Shown here in pieces: positions 4,554 to 22,522 of a stretch of DNA of 64,000 nucleotides (position 1 is its first letter; each line of letters begins with the position of its first letter). Source of the stretch: Myxococcota bacterium (GTDB lineage: Bacteria > Myxococcota_A > UBA9160 > UBA6930); the NCBI GenBank assembly GCA_965223705.1, contig OZ245015.1, positions 928,001 through 992,000 on the forward strand, written 5' to 3'. Below the pieces are notes generated by a model. It was not told the origin of the DNA and did no database searches. It was given only the letters and a program-made list of their open reading frames with translations. The translations under genes and the position numbers were made by a program.

Positions 4554-6293
4554 CTAATTCTGCCGTGCGGAAGGAGCGGCGTCCGCCTCGCCGACGGAGA
4601 TGATCGAAACGAGGTACCGACCCCACGGTTCGCCCGCCGCGCGATGCATCGCGACGCCGATACCGACGGATAGGTCCGCCGGCTCGAGGAGCGTGTCCGG
4701 GAACTCGATGTTGTCGAGCCGGTTCGTCTCGGTCAGCCAACCGCCGACGGTTCCGAGAGTGGTCTCGGCGGAACGGCGAAGCAGTCCGTTCAAGACTTGC
4801 TCGGGATCGGAGCCGCTCGCGATATTTTCCGCGGCTTCCCCACAGAGTGCGGAGATCTCGGGAAGCTCCGTCGGCGCCGCGCGTCTCCTCGAGGCGCGGG
4901 CCGCCGCCAATGCGCTGAGGATCGCCTGGCCGGTAGCGGCGCTATCGCTTTTCCCAAAAGTATCGTACGCGGCGAGGAGGAGGGCCAGCACCGACCGATC
5001 GTCTCGTCGATCGATCGTAGAGCCGATGGCCAACGTATCCGCATCCGCATGGAGAAGAACCGCGCGTCCTTCCGGGTACGCGACCATGTGTCCGAGGAGC
5101 CGGTTGATATCGAGCGAATCCGACTGCCAATCCCAGAAGACATCGCCGGATCGAACGGGGTCTTCGACGTCCCAACCCGCCAACATCCCGAGCGTCGCGG
5201 TCTCGAGGGTTGCGGACGCGACTCCGGCGGCGCCGTGAAGGAAATGCGCGATCAGCCGATCCGCCGTCGCGCTTTGCGCGGGCGAAAGATGCAGCGCGTC
5301 GAGGCCGGCTCGCGCACGCAAGGCGTTGACACTCGCGAGGGCTTGCTCCGAAACCGCTTCTGGCGTTGCCGGCGTCGCCGGCGCGGGGGGTGGCGGACGA
5401 CGGTACGTCGCGCTCGCGTTCCCCTTCGCGAAGATCAACAGATCGAGCCCTTTCTCCGCGAGTAGCCGCCCCGCCGGCCGAAACTGCAACGAAATGACCG
5501 CCGGCTCGCGTTCGCCTTCCGTCGAACAGCGGAATGAAAAACGCGGCAGCGCGACCGAAGGGTCTGCCGCACACGAAGCGAAGCCCGAGGCACCGCGATT
5601 GATGAGCGCCGCGGTCGATACGACGCCCTCGAGCACTTCCCCCTCGATTCGGACGGATTCACCCGGTAATCGCTCCCCGGAGATGGGCGCCACGCGCACA
5701 CGTCGGCGACCGTGCGCCACTGCGAATACGACGCGCTCTCCGATTCTCCCGAACCACACGCCCGCGCTCCGCGGATGCGCGTCGCCCAGTTCGTTCGCGA
5801 GAAGGCCGCGAATGTTCACGGCGCGCTCGCGAAGAATGACCTCGTGAGGCTCGTTCTCGGGAACCTGGAAGCCCAGGTAGGCGAGGGACGTGTCGGCGGC
5901 CGAGGATCGACAGCGCGCGGCGACAAAGCGGCGCACGGCGCTGCTCGGCTGCGCGCCGTGGGTCAGCAGAAATCGGCCGAGCTCCCGAGCGACGCAGTGC
6001 ATGGCTTCGGTCGGGATCAGCGAGGGACCGCGCTTCTCCGCTTGCGCGGCGAGGAACGCGCCGGCTGGCGACGAATCGGCAAAGGGTTTCGTTTCGATCC
6101 GATCCGGGAACGGGCCGCCGAGCTCCCAGGAAGCCGGGTCGAGAAAGCGCCGCTCGAGCATCGCATCGGGAACTTCCCGCGACGGCAGCGCCCGGATCTC
6201 TTCGGGGCTGGGGAAGGCCCCGACCGTCATCGGGGCCTGCGCGTAAGACGCGAGACCCAGGAAAGTCGCCAGCAGGCACACCATGCTGCGCAT
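4554..6293 (-). CDS. Secreted hypothetical protein with CAP/SCP-like segment (paralog of 20213..22012)
   Basis: Signal peptide MRSMVCLLATFLGLASYA after GAAGG; VNALRARAGLDAL segment; many motifs shared with paralog. Confidence 0.75.
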   Translation of the reverse strand: MRSMVCLLATFLGLASYAQAPMTVGAFPSPEEIRALPSREVPDAMLERRFLDPASWELGGPFPDRIETKPFADSSPAGAFLAAQAEKRGPSLIPTEAMHCVARELGRFLLTHGAQPSSAVRRFVAARCRSSAADTSLAYLGFQVPENEPHEVILRERAVNIRGLLANELGDAHPRSAGVWFGRIGERVVFAVAHGRRRVRVAPISGERLPGESVRIEGEVLEGVVSTAALINRGASGFASCAADPSVALPRFSFRCSTEGEREPAVISLQFRPAGRLLAEKGLDLLIFAKGNASATYRRPPPPAPATPATPEAVSEQALASVNALRARAGLDALHLSPAQSATADRLIAHFLHGAAGVASATLETATLGMLAGWDVEDPVRSGDVFWDWQSDSLDINRLLGHMVAYPEGRAVLLHADADTLAIGSTIDRRDDRSVLALLLAAYDTFGKSDSAATGQAILSALAAARASRRRAAPTELPEISALCGEAAENIASGSDPEQVLNGLLRRSAETTLGTVGGWLTETNRLDNIEFPDTLLEPADLSVGIGVAMHRAAGEPWGRYLVSIISVGEADAAPSARQN

Positions 6294-6365
6294 GTTCTCA
6301 CCTTCACGTTGTGAGGCCGGACTCGATAACCTCAGGCGAGTCTGATGAATTCGGAGGGGTTGCGC

Positions 6366-6884
6366 ATGACCTGGGTAGAGCTCGGCGGACTTGGAGAATT
6401 TCTGGGAGCGATGGGCGTCATTGTGACGCTTGTCTACTTGTCGATCCAAGTGCGGCAGAACACGCGCGCGATGGACGACGGCCGCCGTTTGGCTTTGGCG
6501 CAGACGTATCAGATGCGCGCCGATGGTTTGCAGAGCATGCTGGTGCAGGCGGCCGATTCACAGCACATCGCTCCCATCATCGAGCGGCTGACGGGGCTGG
6601 GGTATCCAGAGGACGTAGCGGCGCTCGAGCAGCTTTCCTCCGATGAGCGCAGTCGGTTCCGGTTGTGGCAAATCGCCCAACAAACCCATTGGGACAACAT
6701 GCTCTACCAGTATCAGCAGGGCTTTCTCGATCCCGAGTACTACGAGGACGCGTTCAAGGTTCGCGTGCGACGTCTGGCTCCGACGTGGGACGCGTTGGGG
6801 CTCATCGGAGGACGCAGCAGTTTCGACCGCGCCCTCCGCGAGATCATGTGCGAGGAATCGCCTGCGCCTACAAGTTCGGGATGA
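6366..6884 (+). CDS. Hypothetical membrane-anchored protein (GEFLGAxxVxxTLxYLxxQVRQN family)
   Basis: GGAGG RBS before ATG 6366; N-terminal TM motif shared with 24399..24875. Confidence 0.75.
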   Translation: MTWVELGGLGEFLGAMGVIVTLVYLSIQVRQNTRAMDDGRRLALAQTYQMRADGLQSMLVQAADSQHIAPIIERLTGLGYPEDVAALEQLSSDERSRFRLWQIAQQTHWDNMLYQYQQGFLDPEYYEDAFKVRVRRLAPTWDALGLIGGRSSFDRALREIMCEESPAPTSSG

Positions 6885-8973: not shown

Positions 8974-9684
8974 TCAGTCCGCGGTGCGCACCGGGCACGG
9001 CGCGGGTTCGTCGCAGAGGTCTGTGAGTTGGTGCTCGAGCACCCGGACCCACCGCTCGAGGCTGTCCGGGTCGAATTTGCCCGACGTTTCGCGATCGAAC
9101 GTGTTGTGGCGCTCCTGCGCGTGTTGCAGTGTGAGTTCGTACGCGCGCACCACGAGCTCCGGACCCGAATGCCGGGCCGCTAGTTTCGCGATGGTCCGCG
9201 AGAGCTGGCGCGACGCGACTTCCATAATCGCAAAGTGAATTTGTTCGTGTTGGAGGACGTACCAGTCGGGCTGCTTCACCGGTACGACGGCGGGCAGACC
9301 GGAGAGTACGCTCGCTAGGGCGACGGCTTTGCCGACCGGTCCCCCCACGCGGTTCCAAAAAGAACACTCACGCCGCAGGGTCGCGCGGAACGTCCCGGGC
9401 TCGTCGCGCGGCACGATCATCGTGCACACTTCGGCAGCGTGGGCGAAGTTGCCCCACAGGCTGTGCGACGTCTTGGCTTTGAAATCTTCCTTCGTGAGGA
9501 GGCGATACGGCACGGTTCCGCTGCGCCATTCCGGCGGGATCGGGAACTCAGGCATCTGGATGGTGGGTGCCGCTGCAGGCATCTGGATGGTGGGTGCCGC
9601 CGGCGCCTCTTCCTCGGTGGCTGAAACGACGGTGACGGTGAGAAGGAGTACGGCGGCGATCGAAGCGAAGGTGCGGAGCATCAT
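8974..9684 (-). CDS. Secreted DUF922-like putative metallopeptidase
   Basis: Signal peptide; LTKEDFKA and VLQHEQIHFAIME motifs. Confidence 0.6.
   Translation of the reverse strand: MMLRTFASIAAVLLLTVTVVSATEEEAPAAPTIQMPAAAPTIQMPEFPIPPEWRSGTVPYRLLTKEDFKAKTSHSLWGNFAHAAEVCTMIVPRDEPGTFRATLRRECSFWNRVGGPVGKAVALASVLSGLPAVVPVKQPDWYVLQHEQIHFAIMEVASRQLSRTIAKLAARHSGPELVVRAYELTLQHAQERHNTFDRETSGKFDPDSLERWVRVLEHQLTDLCDEPAPCPVRTAD
9549..9602. repeat. 27-bp in-frame tandem duplication (AAPTIQMP twice)
   Basis: caggcatctggatggtgggtgccgc(t/c)g repeated twice. Confidence 0.9.
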
Positions 9685-9804: not shown

Positions 9805-11040
9805 ATGAAATACGCCCGCCGCGGCCGGAAGATCGTGATCGCGATGGTCGGCTTGCCCGCCCGGGGCAAGACCTTCACGGCGCGAAAGCTCGTGGGCTAC
9901 TTGAGCTGGCTCGGTTACCCGACCCGATCCTTCAACGTCGGAGAAGCTCGGCGAACGAAGCTCGGACCGGGCCAATCTTCGGACTTCTTCGACCCGCAAA
10001 ACGTCGCCGGCGAGGTGCAACGGCGGGCGCTGGCCGAATCCGTTCTCGCCGACGCGTTCGACTGGTTGCGTTCGGAGGGACGCATCGCGATCTACGACGC
10101 GACCAACAGTACGCGCGAGCGGCGTGACTGGATCGCAGGGCGCTGTCGAGAAGAAGATCGCGACCTGCTCTTTGTCGAGATCTCCACGAAAGAAGAGCTC
10201 GTCGAAGACACGATCCGCGAGACGAAGATCACGTCTCCCGACTACGAGGGGCGGACCGAAGAGGAGGCCCTGGCGGATTTCCGGGAGCGCATCGCGCACT
10301 ACGAGGGCGCGTACGAACCGCTCGAGCCGGACGAAGGCGCGTGGGTGCGACTCGTCGATCGCGGGCGACAGATTGTCATCAACCGGGTGCACGGATGGAT
10401 CTTCGGAAGAATCTTGTCGTTCCTCGGGAACTTCCAAGTCGCGGCGCGCCCGGTTTGGTTGACGCGTCACGGCGAGAGTCAATTCAACCGCGAAGATCGC
10501 GTCGGTGGCGATTCCGAGCTTTCTCCGCGCGGCCAAGCGTACGCGACGGAGCTTGCCCGCCACGTGCGCAGAGCGTTTCGACCCGACGACGACTTGGACG
10601 TCTGGACCAGCACGCTCGCCCGCACGGTGCAGACCGCGGAGCCGCTCGAGGCGGATATCGGAAGGTGGCGCGCACTCGACGAGATCAACGCCGGGGTTTG
10701 CGATGGGCTGACCTACGCGGAAATTGACGAGCGCTACCCGGACGTCGCGTCGGGACGAAGCCGCGACAAGTTCGAGTTTCGCTACCCGGGTGGCGAGAGC
10801 TATGCCGACGTCGTGAGCCGTGTCGATCGCGTCATCATCGAGCTCGAGCGCTACCAGACGCCCGTCCTCGTCATTGCGCACCGTGCGGTTCTGCGGGCGC
10901 TCTACGCGTACTTCATGCAGCTCTCGCCTCGGGAGGCGCCGCACATCGATATGCCGCTCCATACCGTCATCAAGCTGACGCCGACGGCGTACGGTTGTCT
11001 GGAGGAGCGCGTCGAGCTCCCTCCGAAGATCGAGCGCTAG
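9805..11040 (+). CDS. Bifunctional 6-phosphofructo-2-kinase/fructose-2,6-bisphosphatase (PFKFB-like)
   Basis: Kinase: MVGLPARGKT, FNVGEARR, YDATNSTRERR, SPDY, DFRERIAHY. Histidine phosphatase: LTRHGES, LDEINAG, RYPGGESY, IAHRAVLR, PLHTVIKL. Confidence 0.93.
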   Translation: MKYARRGRKIVIAMVGLPARGKTFTARKLVGYLSWLGYPTRSFNVGEARRTKLGPGQSSDFFDPQNVAGEVQRRALAESVLADAFDWLRSEGRIAIYDATNSTRERRDWIAGRCREEDRDLLFVEISTKEELVEDTIRETKITSPDYEGRTEEEALADFRERIAHYEGAYEPLEPDEGAWVRLVDRGRQIVINRVHGWIFGRILSFLGNFQVAARPVWLTRHGESQFNREDRVGGDSELSPRGQAYATELARHVRRAFRPDDDLDVWTSTLARTVQTAEPLEADIGRWRALDEINAGVCDGLTYAEIDERYPDVASGRSRDKFEFRYPGGESYADVVSRVDRVIIELERYQTPVLVIAHRAVLRALYAYFMQLSPREAPHIDMPLHTVIKLTPTAYGCLEERVELPPKIER

Positions 11041-11043
11041 CGC

Positions 11044-12027
11044 GTGCGCGCCTTGCTCTCCGGAGCGCATCGGTGGCGCGTCCGACAGACTGCGCCTCTC
11101 CGGGTCCTGTGGTCCAAGGGCGTGGCGCGGTTCTGCGACGTTGCGGGGGGCGAGGGTTATTGGGCGCAACCGACCGAGGCTGTCGCGTCGCCCGAGTACG
11201 TGGAGCGACACTTCGCCGACGCCGAAGGGCTGGTCTGGTTGCGCCTCGGAACCCAGTCGCGAACCGGTCGCCCCTGCGATGTCGATCGTTTCGTCGCGCG
11301 AGTGCTGCCGAACATCGAGCACCCCTTCGCTCTGTTGACGACCGACGGCGATACCTCCGTGCCCGGCGACCTGCCGCCTCGGACCGTCGAGGCGCTGCTA
11401 GAGAACCCGCGAATGATCGCTTGGCGCACGCAAAACTACGACGGCTATCGCCATCCGAAGCTCGGTCCGTTCCCGATCGGCCTCGATCTGCACACGTTTC
11501 GAGGTTGGCGCGGGCCCTCGGGTTGGGTGCGGGCGCTCAATCGGATCTGCGCCGCACGGACGCCGCTCGAGCATGCTCCGCCGCGAGTCTTCTGCGATTT
11601 CAAGGCCACCTGGCGCTCGTCCGAGCGCGCGCGGGTCATCGATGTGCTCGACGGTTGCTCGCACGTCGATTTCCAGACCGAGCGTCTCGGGCAAATTGCG
11701 ATCTGGCGACGCTACGCCGCCTATCCGTTTGTCGTGAGCACCCACGGCAACGGACTCGATTGTCACCGCACGTGGGAGACGCTCTACCTCGGGTCGATCG
11801 TGATTACGAAGACCTCGAGTCTCGATCCGCTCTTCGAGGGGCTACCGGTCGCCGTAGTCGAGCGATGGGAGGAGGTTCGCGATCCGGCGAATCTCGCCCG
11901 CTGGAAGCGAGAGCTCGCTCCGCTCGCCGAGGCCGCGCGTGTCCGCGAACGGCTCGATCCGGCGCGTTTGGTGGGCGAGTTGCGCGCGCTTCTGGGACCT
12001 TCCGGGGATTCCCAACCTCACCTGTGA
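11044..12027 (+). CDS. Exostosin/GT47-like putative glycosyltransferase
   Basis: HPKLGPFPIGLD and FVVSTHGNGLDCHRTWETLYLGSIVI...LFEGLPV motifs. Confidence 0.6.
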   Translation: MRALLSGAHRWRVRQTAPLRVLWSKGVARFCDVAGGEGYWAQPTEAVASPEYVERHFADAEGLVWLRLGTQSRTGRPCDVDRFVARVLPNIEHPFALLTTDGDTSVPGDLPPRTVEALLENPRMIAWRTQNYDGYRHPKLGPFPIGLDLHTFRGWRGPSGWVRALNRICAARTPLEHAPPRVFCDFKATWRSSERARVIDVLDGCSHVDFQTERLGQIAIWRRYAAYPFVVSTHGNGLDCHRTWETLYLGSIVITKTSSLDPLFEGLPVAVVERWEEVRDPANLARWKRELAPLAEAARVRERLDPARLVGELRALLGPSGDSQPHL

Positions 12028-20212: not shown

Positions 20213-22012
20213 TCAGTGTACGAGATCGCCGCTCGCGGGAAGCTCGGGACGTACCGTTACGAGCTCGGCAGACGTGAGTTCGGGACCGACCGCTACGATC
20301 AGCACGATGTACCGTCCCCACGGTTCGCCGTCGGGCTTCCGGAATGCGACAGCAATCGCGACGTCGAGTTCGTCCGACGACAAAAAGGGCTCCGGAAGCT
20401 CGATGTCACCGAGGTGTGTCGTCTCACTGATCCAGCCGCTGACCGGTCGTTGCACTTGATCGAGGGCGTCTTGAAGCAGCTGGTGCAACGCCTCCTCGGA
20501 AGATGTGCCTCGTTGAATGCGGATTGCCGCCTCTAGGCACAAATCCGACAACGACGTCCGCAACACGGGAGACCGAGTGTTTCTCAACCGTCGCTCTGTT
20601 TCGAGTTTTCGCAGGATTGAAGCGACGTGGGCCTCATGCTCATCCGACCCGAAGATCTGGTAGGTGCCAATGAGAAGGCCACGAAGGCTCGCGCTCGATC
20701 TCGCCTCGCTAAGTGCACCCACAGCGATCGTACGCGCCTCTGGATCGAGGAGGCTTGCGCGCTTCGCGGGAGATTCGAGCATGCCGCGAATCAGACGCTC
20801 GAGATTCGTGTAAGCCGTCGACCAGCCCCACGCAACCGCTCCGGATTGCACGATGTCTTCGACACGCCAGCCGGCCATCATCCCGAGCATGACAAGGTCC
20901 GTGGTCGAACCGGGAGCATTCCCCGAGATAGAGGCCATCAAGTGAGGGGCCAACTCGCGGCCAACCTCGCTTTGCGTTGAAGAGAACTCGAGAGCCGTGA
21001 GACCGGCTTGCTCCCGGATCTGGTTGACAATTCTTGCCGCCGCGCGTTCGAGAACGGCCGGATCGTCCGCGTCGCGGCGAACGTCAAAGCGGACTCGCCG
21101 ATACCGCGATGACCGATCCTTCTTAGGGCGGAACATCAGATCGAGGACTGAATGCGCGACGAACCGCCCTGCGGGTTGTGCCAGCAATACCGCTTGGACG
21201 GACTCTTCGACCCCCGCGTGTTCGCAGGTAAACGAGAAGTGCGGCAAGCGAACCGTGTCGTCTTGCTGGCACACTTCCACACCAAACTCGCCGCGGTTCG
21301 CCAACAGTGACACACTCTCACTCGGGTTCAGCAAGGTACCGCGAACGCGCACTGGCTCACCGGGCGTCCGCTCCGTGACGATCTTCTCGAACTGCACGCG
21401 TCGTCGTCCGCTTGCGACGACAAAGAGCCCGGTGTCGGCACGACGACCGTACCAGACGCCCGCACTCAACGGCCCACCAACGAGGTGCTTTTCAAGCATC
21501 TCTTGGATGCGATCGGCCTGGTTGAGCATCACCGCTTGGTCATCCTCGACACTGCGGAAGTAGAGGGAACTCGTAGAGACTCCGACAGAGGCGGCGTTGC
21601 ATCGCGCTGTGATGAAGCGGCGGAGCTCGGGCGTCGGGTTTGCCTCGTGCTCGAAATAGAAGAGCCCGATCTCCCGAGCGACACAGTGCATCGCTTCGGT
21701 CGGCACGATGAGTCCAGCCCGTTTTTCCGCCGCCTGCTTCAAGACGGTTCCCCAGAGCGACGTGTCAACGAAAGGGGCGGGATCGATCGCATCGGGGAAC
21801 GGTCCAGACAATTCCCATTCCGGTACGTCTTTCTCGGTTGCTTCGAAGATGCCGTGAGGAACGGTTCCTTGTCCCAGTGACTGAAGGGTCTCGGGCGTCG
21901 GAAAGGGGGAATCTCTTTCCGCGGCCAAGGCGTTGGCCGCATCGAGGAGGATGGTCCCGAGTGCCATGAGCAGCAACCGGGTGATACCTCTGCTGGGTCT
22001 TGAATCTCGCAT
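20213..22012 (-). CDS. Secreted hypothetical protein with CAP/SCP-like segment (paralog of 4554..6293)
   Basis: Signal peptide; WELSGPFPD, PTEAMHCVARE, VNQIREQAGL, LGMMAGW.VED, GEPWGRY shared with paralog. Confidence 0.75.
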   Translation of the reverse strand: MRDSRPSRGITRLLLMALGTILLDAANALAAERDSPFPTPETLQSLGQGTVPHGIFEATEKDVPEWELSGPFPDAIDPAPFVDTSLWGTVLKQAAEKRAGLIVPTEAMHCVAREIGLFYFEHEANPTPELRRFITARCNAASVGVSTSSLYFRSVEDDQAVMLNQADRIQEMLEKHLVGGPLSAGVWYGRRADTGLFVVASGRRRVQFEKIVTERTPGEPVRVRGTLLNPSESVSLLANRGEFGVEVCQQDDTVRLPHFSFTCEHAGVEESVQAVLLAQPAGRFVAHSVLDLMFRPKKDRSSRYRRVRFDVRRDADDPAVLERAAARIVNQIREQAGLTALEFSSTQSEVGRELAPHLMASISGNAPGSTTDLVMLGMMAGWRVEDIVQSGAVAWGWSTAYTNLERLIRGMLESPAKRASLLDPEARTIAVGALSEARSSASLRGLLIGTYQIFGSDEHEAHVASILRKLETERRLRNTRSPVLRTSLSDLCLEAAIRIQRGTSSEEALHQLLQDALDQVQRPVSGWISETTHLGDIELPEPFLSSDELDVAIAVAFRKPDGEPWGRYIVLIVAVGPELTSAELVTVRPELPASGDLVH

Positions 22013-22144
22013 GTCAGGCAAATCGGGAGATTCAAGCGTGTGCTTGAAGGGGCCGTCTCCGGCTACAACTCTTGCAACTTTTGTTGCACGTCTTGGGTCA
22101 TCGGGTTCACACGCGTTGACCCGCGCGAATGGAGTCAGTTTGTC

Positions 22145-22420
22145 ATGAACGCGCTCGTCGATTTTCTCCTGTTCCGAAAGATGGCCTCTCCCTTCTTGCT
22201 CCAGATTCTCTTCTGGGCGGGCATCGGGGGGACGTTCTACGGCGCCTACGTCCTGCTTCAGCTCGACAATTGGGCGTGGTGTCCGGCTCTTGTTTTCGGA
22301 AGTCTCGGCACACGCGTGCTCTTCGAGCGTCTGCTCTTGTCGTTCCGGAGCTTCGAGCAGCTCGAAGAGCTCGTCGACCTGCTCCGGCGCAACACCGGGG
22401 AGCAGTTTCTCGGCAAGTAG
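22145..22420 (+). CDS. DUF4282-like small membrane protein
   Basis: FLLFRKMASP..LQILFW and R+LFE...FR..E.L motifs; GGAG RBS. Confidence 0.7.
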   Translation: MNALVDFLLFRKMASPFLLQILFWAGIGGTFYGAYVLLQLDNWAWCPALVFGSLGTRVLFERLLLSFRSFEQLEELVDLLRRNTGEQFLGK

Positions 22421-22522
22421 CCGCTTTTTATCCAACGGACGCGACACGTTTTCCGGAAAACCGGCACTCACTTGGGCCCGCCATCTCGGCGCACCCCTGT
22501 ACTTCCGGAAGAGGAACTAAAT

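Follow-up and report, generated by a model that had tools for sequence, protein, structure and literature searches.

Textbooks present fructose-2,6-bisphosphate (F2,6BP) as a signal exclusive to eukaryotes. The closest described relatives of the locus analysed here are the mammalian enzymes PFKFB1-4 (2AXN and 2DWP for human PFKFB3; 1K6M, 5HTK, 1BIF), with which it shares domain order, fold and both active sites. Its product (P0001), known here from sequence and a model, differs from them in its bacterial host, in having no N- or C-terminal regulatory tails and in the residues at 48 (Ala, not Tyr) and 360 (Arg, not Gln); where human PFKFB3, which has low phosphatase activity, has Ser, P0001 has Arg273. 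Plant and algal F2KP share the catalytic core (45-47% identity to P0001), whereas their CBM20 and long N-terminal part are absent from P0001. The plant cytosolic PFP and FBPase system is another parallel, for this genome likewise pairs a putative PPi-PFK with a class I FBPase, although its own PFK belongs to a short Trichomonas/Thermotogales-like clade and not with plant PFP; we take the combination of these two enzymes with PFKFB to resemble that of plant cytosol. The stand-alone bacterial histidine phosphatases CobC, PspA and GpmB share the branch-1 RHG fold with the C-terminal half of P0001 but have no kinase domain. Their matches reach about 45 bits where the rat FBPase-2 domain reaches 200, and no NCBIfam cut-off is attained. 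Bacterial PFKFB proteins of the same family (Myxococcota MAGs, Sorangium, Polyangium, Minicystis, Chondromyces) are 50-67% identical to P0001.

Earlier literature reportedly includes Michels and Rigden (2006). PMC9721465, citing Rider 2004, describes F2,6BP as absent from bacteria save Desulfovibrio desulfuricans, a putative further case of the family. In PMC11976288 'pfk2' stands for a K00850 clade; the one mention of PFKFB is a supplementary homology table, in whose orthologue groups bacteria make up 0-14% of the members. The main text and four supplements of PMC3131387 do not mention PFKFB. Our literature search, weakened by the unsearchable comma in the metabolite name and with subscription journals mostly outside coverage, found no enzyme assay and no F2,6BP measurement for any bacterium, nor a study of a bacterial PFKFB. 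What is known already is that the family is annotated in bacteria (NCBI names some MAG proteins 6-phosphofructo-2-kinase/fructose-2,6-bisphosphatase) and that the Desulfovibrio exception is in print. Since the family is already annotated, the gene alone is no discovery; new here is the co-occurrence and linkage evidence on targets.

The window is a stretch of 64,000 nucleotides from a Myxococcota genome; the features discussed are collected in Table 1. We confirmed a reading frame predicted to encode a PFK-2/FBPase-2 with both active sites intact. A longer start at GTG 9748 was rejected because close homologues begin about the Met at 9805.

Table 1. Features of the PFKFB locus (positions in the window)
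Feature	Position	Strand	Basis or remark
Bifunctional 6-phosphofructo-2-kinase/fructose-2,6-bisphosphatase gene (predicted)	9805-11040	+	ATG to TAG, 411 aa (P0001)
6PF2K kinase domain, aa 7-212	9823..10440	+	Pfam PF01591
P-loop GLPARGKT, aa 16-23	9850..9873	+	sequence
Histidine-phosphatase (FBPase-2) domain, aa 217-398	10453..10998	+	Pfam PF00300
RHG motif with phospho-accepting His222 (predicted)	10465..10473	+	sequence; mechanism per PMC13446353
327-aa ORF, RXYLT1_C/GT47-like	11044..12027	+	language-model features; starts 3 nt downstream of PFKFB

A preliminary description of this DNA had claimed intact kinase and phosphatase motifs in PFKFB order. Every motif that it quoted was found: beside the P-loop, FNVG (43-46), DATN (98-101) and SPDY (144-147) in the kinase half, and RHGES (221-225), LDE (291-293), RYP.GESY (326-333) and H..V.R (359-364) in the phosphatase half. 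The two Pfam domains lie on the same chain in that order (6PF2K, 205 bits against a cut-off of 27; His_Phos_1, 138 bits). Human PFKFB3 matches aa 10-405 of P0001 (372 bits, E 4e-110). By alignment P0001 is a bare catalytic core, with about 9 residues ahead of it and 6 after it and none of the extensions typical of eukaryotic forms; because the tails with phosphorylation sites are missing, we did not file it under the vertebrate PFKFB1-4 isoforms.

The 13 F6P-pocket residues of human PFKFB3 were taken from PMC3177832 (Thr48, Val70, Arg74, Arg75, Phe87, Arg98, Asp124, Thr126, Glu131, Arg132, Arg189, Tyr193 and Tyr424). All 13 are identical in P0001 (T23, V45, R49, R50, F62, R73, D98, T100, E105, R106, R162, Y166 and Y396), and the P-loop stretch G16-K22 shows no variation across 41 homologues. 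K141 is the equivalent of human Lys168 and presumably shares its role in the kinase site. Of the 13 positions in the catalytic set of the phosphatase domain, 12 agree with duck PFKFB3, the exception being the Gln to Arg change at 360, where most homologues have Gln. We assume that the catalytic roles of the residues in this domain (R221, H222, N228, G234, R273, E293, Y304, R318, K322, Y333, H359 and R364) carry over from the mammalian enzymes. The 110 bacterial alignment rows, 18 of them from Sorangium and some of them duplicated, agree without exception at 21 of the 31 positions checked; the Arg132 equivalent is Gln in six rows. The AlphaFold model of P0001 (pLDDT 90) matches 26 full-length mammalian PFKFB chains (PFKFB1-4) in Foldseek with TM 0.89-0.95 and 42-47% identity. 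The full-length PFKFB3 match, the pocket and the fold together bear out the assignment to a true PFKFB-type enzyme. In Myxococcota genomes the gene is under purifying selection, with dN/dS of 0.03-0.33 in both domains for 15/15 pairs (a simple counting method, with high-GC bias).

The neighbours of the gene in this genome are a nitroreductase, a weak DUF922 protein, the GT47-like ORF and a Rieske oxygenase, none of which recurs next to PFKFB in the relatives examined; no sigma-70 promoter match was found for the PFKFB gene. The 327-aa ORF has no Pfam match, and its look-alikes are in phages and giant viruses; as it is not beside PFKFB in relatives, it is probably not part of the PFKFB system. 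A short direct duplication (window 9560-9602) in the divergent ORF at 8974-9684 (-) gives 'AAPTIQMP' twice. Elsewhere in the window, 4554-6449 (-) and 20213-22471 (-) encode two paralogues, 631 and 752 aa long and both probably exported, whose cysteine-containing segments resemble each other. In one phylum member (G466, L340:14046-18495) transketolase, 6-phosphogluconate dehydrogenase and a cut class I FBPase are clustered some 10-14 kb from PFKFB on one contig.

Bacterial homologues had been thought sparse. This is not supported for the Myxococcota, in which PFKFB is not rare: about a fifth of the sampled genomes have it. PF01591 was found in 19/32 genomes of the same family, in 0/28 from other families of the order, in 24/161 of the class and in 81/401 of the phylum, against 0/14 control genomes. 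A profile scan of GTDB genomes confirmed 223 places, of which the best 80 take in cultured Sorangium and Polyangium, plus Minicystis and Chondromyces. The nearest named homologues of P0001 are Myxococcota/Deltaproteobacteria MAG proteins (65-67% identity). No bacterial PFKFB with fused extra domains was seen among the best 120 longer matches, whose named rows are eukaryotic, which is weak evidence.

What might such an enzyme do? The reading that we favor, at a probability of about 0.62, is that it sets the level of F2,6BP to brake FBPase and so limits F6P/F1,6BP cycling. The N-terminal P-loop domain would make F2,6BP by moving phosphate from ATP onto the C2 hydroxyl of fructose 6-phosphate, and the C-terminal domain would strip that phosphate via phospho-His222; a phospho-histidine route for FBPase-2 is given in PMC13446353. 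The main target would be the organism's own class I FBPase, inhibited competitively at its active site. At times of ample hexose phosphate, such inhibition would slow gluconeogenesis and prevent a wasteful cycle against the short-clade PFK. E. coli FBPase is inhibited by F2,6BP. In plant enzymes F6P, Pi and C3 phosphates tune the kinase/phosphatase balance; as P0001 has no phosphorylation tails, its balance would probably also be set by such metabolites. For mammalian and Leishmania FBPases, F2,6BP is described in PMC5639204 as a competitive active-site inhibitor.

The genome holds one PFK-family gene, one pyruvate kinase and one class I FBPase (C1:4216791-4217750); the GlpX type gave no match in this genome and was dropped as a target. 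The FBPase scores 384 bits against NF006778 (cut-off 368). Alignment to the E. coli (2GQ1) and rabbit (1BK4) structures shows that it keeps the active-site motifs, and it has a mammalian-type Tyr. Across the phylum, class I FBPase is present in 73/81 PFKFB genomes versus 138/320 others, and in the class sample in 21/24 versus 14/137; these counts were made without a species tree, and kin are not independent. With its own family removed from the class, both genes are rare and FBPase I occurs in 5/7 PFKFB genomes (in four genera of three families; G466 could be a misbinned contig) versus 9/129 others, for which the Fisher p of 1e-4 is overstated because of kinship. Within the family, 18/19 relatives with PFK as well as FBPase I also carry PFKFB, against 1/13 of those that miss one or both, a pattern inflated by small or incomplete genomes, several of the 13 being small or only 75-89% complete. 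The association has exceptions on both sides: 138 genomes have FBPase I without PFKFB, and 8/81 PFKFB genomes have no class I FBPase match, among them three of one genus (94-95% complete), G270 and G375 (96%).

At the residue level, comparison of FBPases from PFKFB-positive and negative genomes (56 and 59 rows) gave no signature beyond kinship. Position 45, reportedly tied to AMP/F2,6BP synergism by Gao in 2014, is small in 55/56 positive and 48/58 negative genomes (one gap left out), and therefore does not discriminate. The class I FBPases of the family (L192:5789-6751, L161-L190) form a distinct subtype with a shortened N-terminus, which presumably misses the usual AMP-site pattern, and a mammalian-type Tyr at the 6-phosphate site. 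They combine a small residue 45, common across the phylum, with Leu186. Two congeners of 2.1-2.3 Mb (G001 and G002, 75-87% complete), compared with 4.56 Mb here, have FBPase I and gave no match for PFK or PFKFB, possibly through genome reduction with co-loss of the two genes.

It had also been suggested that F2,6BP signalling might partition carbon to storage. The signalling half of this suggestion gains indirect support from the intact active sites, the purifying selection, the co-occurrence with FBPase I and the PFK linkage in relatives. The storage half fared otherwise: neither glycogen synthase nor glucan phosphorylase was found in this 95%-complete genome, which leaves the idea without support, and we rejected it. 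Trehalose-phosphate synthase is present.

If the enzyme makes F2,6BP, its main target could instead be the short-clade PFK, activated in the manner of plant PFP; we regard this as unlikely. The single PFK gene (C1:2251843-2253078) has the GGDD and PKTIDND motifs, finds its best structure in 9DQM (Trichomonas PPi-PFK, 339 bits) and scores 519 bits against NF041103, below the cut-off of 550. One point for this target is linkage: in 14/19 same-family carriers (genera g2 and g4) PFKFB lies head-to-head with the PFK gene, with 64-299 nt between the matches, and the pair recurs in G270 of another family (f11). Against this, shared promoters speak for co-regulation and not for binding, and in this genome and five relatives the two genes are apart; here PFKFB is linked neither to PFK nor to FBPase I. 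G270 and G375 retain PFKFB and PFK without an FBPase I match, but this PFK clade occurs in just 19/81 PFKFB genomes of the phylum. (PFK as such is present in 147/161 genomes of the class and is therefore uninformative at that level.) Plant PPi-PFK is activated by F2,6BP according to PMC12203962, which describes the characterised bacterial PPi-PFKs as all non-allosteric. In Trichomonas PPi-PFK, a preprint (10.64898/2026.03.28.715000) reports, the dimer interface holds a sugar-phosphate site that is not catalytic. The PFK of this genome is basic at the equivalent site (R28, R29, K223), and Arg at position 28 is found in 18/20 PFKFB-positive versus 13/34 negative genomes; these basic residues, however, track kinship, and comparison of the 20 positive and 34 negative PFK rows gave no signature beyond it. 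A further point for PFK as the target is that genus g2 PFKs read GGDG.

This last change is worth noting in itself. GGDG is the motif of ATP-type PFKs and GGDD that of the PPi type. The g2 genes (G003, G020, G023, G026, G028 and G031; e.g. L195) have GGDG in 6/6 aligned rows and the other 48 rows have GGDD, which suggests a change from PPi to ATP use in g2. With such a switch, a cycle with FBPase would be truly futile.

Another possibility, which we consider quite improbable, is that the enzyme acts on a different sugar phosphate (e.g. sedoheptulose 7-phosphate) or has a futile-cycle or clean-up role, with F2,6BP below signalling levels. The description of F2,6BP as absent from bacteria besides Desulfovibrio (PMC9721465, noted above) favors this, as do the uninformative character of most gene neighbourhoods, the Arg at position 360 in 18/110 bacterial rows and the loss of the Arg98 equivalent, which is Leu in 31 of them. 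But Arg at 360 also occurs in 24/133 presumed eukaryotic rows, both pockets of P0001 match those of F6P/F2,6BP-specific eukaryotic enzymes residue for residue, and the genomic context points at the F6P/F1,6BP step. The loss of Arg98 concerns for example Sorangium and Minicystis, unlike P0001, which keeps the Arg; in Polyangiaceae it is seen at L063:6001-7254 and L043. The kinase of such proteins may behave differently.

Contamination or a chimeric contig, of which the preliminary description had been wary, is ruled out, and the PFKFB gene is native. It sits on a 4.54-Mb contig of a genome with 95% completeness and 0.6% contamination. In 3/3 runs (at most two samples of one study, which may be the source DNA itself) the gene and its bacterial flanks are covered by single contigs, 13.7, 15.3 and 16.8 kb long, and no joints were found. 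The gene's GC3 is 0.81 (median 0.78), and by CAI it ranks at the 84th percentile among 2369 ORFs from a crude gene call. That contamination, a chimera or recent transfer from a eukaryote explains the gene is scarcely credible: the 46-47% identity to human PFKFB3 that might suggest it stands against the spanning contigs, the host-like codon use, orthologues at 62-67% identity in 19/32 family genomes and the position of the Myxococcota rows in trees. The gene is a member of an old Myxococcota clade, not a recent import.

In a full-length tree of 183 rows, of which 45 are bacterial (dereplicated at 75%) and 138 come from a set of 150 representatives, the Myxococcota make up one side of a branch (SH 96), as they do in a second tree of 80 rows (SH-aLRT 93). 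Neither full-length tree gave a supported tie of their rows to any eukaryotic group; of the rows counted as eukaryotic only some carry names, and Desulfobacterota rows are absent from all trees. A sister position alone gives no direction of transfer. A phosphatase-domain tree (69 rows after thinning of 27, 190 columns) has its root among the Myxococcota rows when 16 bacterial histidine phosphatases serve as outgroup; that outgroup is distant and high in GC like the host. Constraining eukaryotes and viruses together raised the likelihood by 3.5 (p-AU 0.59); constraining the Myxococcota together lowered it by 6.3 (p-AU 0.34), so that their monophyly is not rejected. These trees lean to a myxobacterial root for eukaryotic PFKFB and are compatible with either direction of transfer. 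The lean fits a preprint (10.64898/2026.05.08.723234) in which many metabolic genes of LECA are reported to have a sister group in the Myxococcota; PMC12872458 reports a narrower Myxococcota-eukaryote link. It is conceivable, if doubtful, that F2,6BP signalling began in the Myxococcota, controls their FBPase/PFK step to this day and passed from them into the proto-eukaryote. In that case PFKFB would add to what myxobacteria contributed to eukaryogenesis, and no bacterial PFK before the short-clade enzyme may have been one that responds to F2,6BP.

Independently of origin, a fifth of the sampled phylum genomes keep PFKFB under purifying selection. The gene follows class I FBPase in its distribution and within one family adjoins a PFK gene; such co-occurrence and linkage lend testable backing to the idea that F2,6BP controls the F6P/F1,6BP step in these bacteria. 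As PFKFB, FBPase I and PFKs are all present in cultured Sorangium, Polyangium, Minicystis and Chondromyces, the eukaryote-only dogma is cheaply testable. If the enzyme proved active, bacterial carbon metabolism would gain a second messenger, with a bearing on how a core regulatory circuit of eukaryotes originated.

PFKFB also occurs in giant-virus MAGs, where 8 loci comprise 3 full-length and 5 phosphatase-only matches. These PFKFBs (among them L213:2622-3875, L214 and L216; P0254, P0201 and P0236) form a compact clade of unusual letter make-up (SH-aLRT 99). A PFKFB gene has already been noted in PkV RF01, and viral PFKFB could raise host glycolysis.
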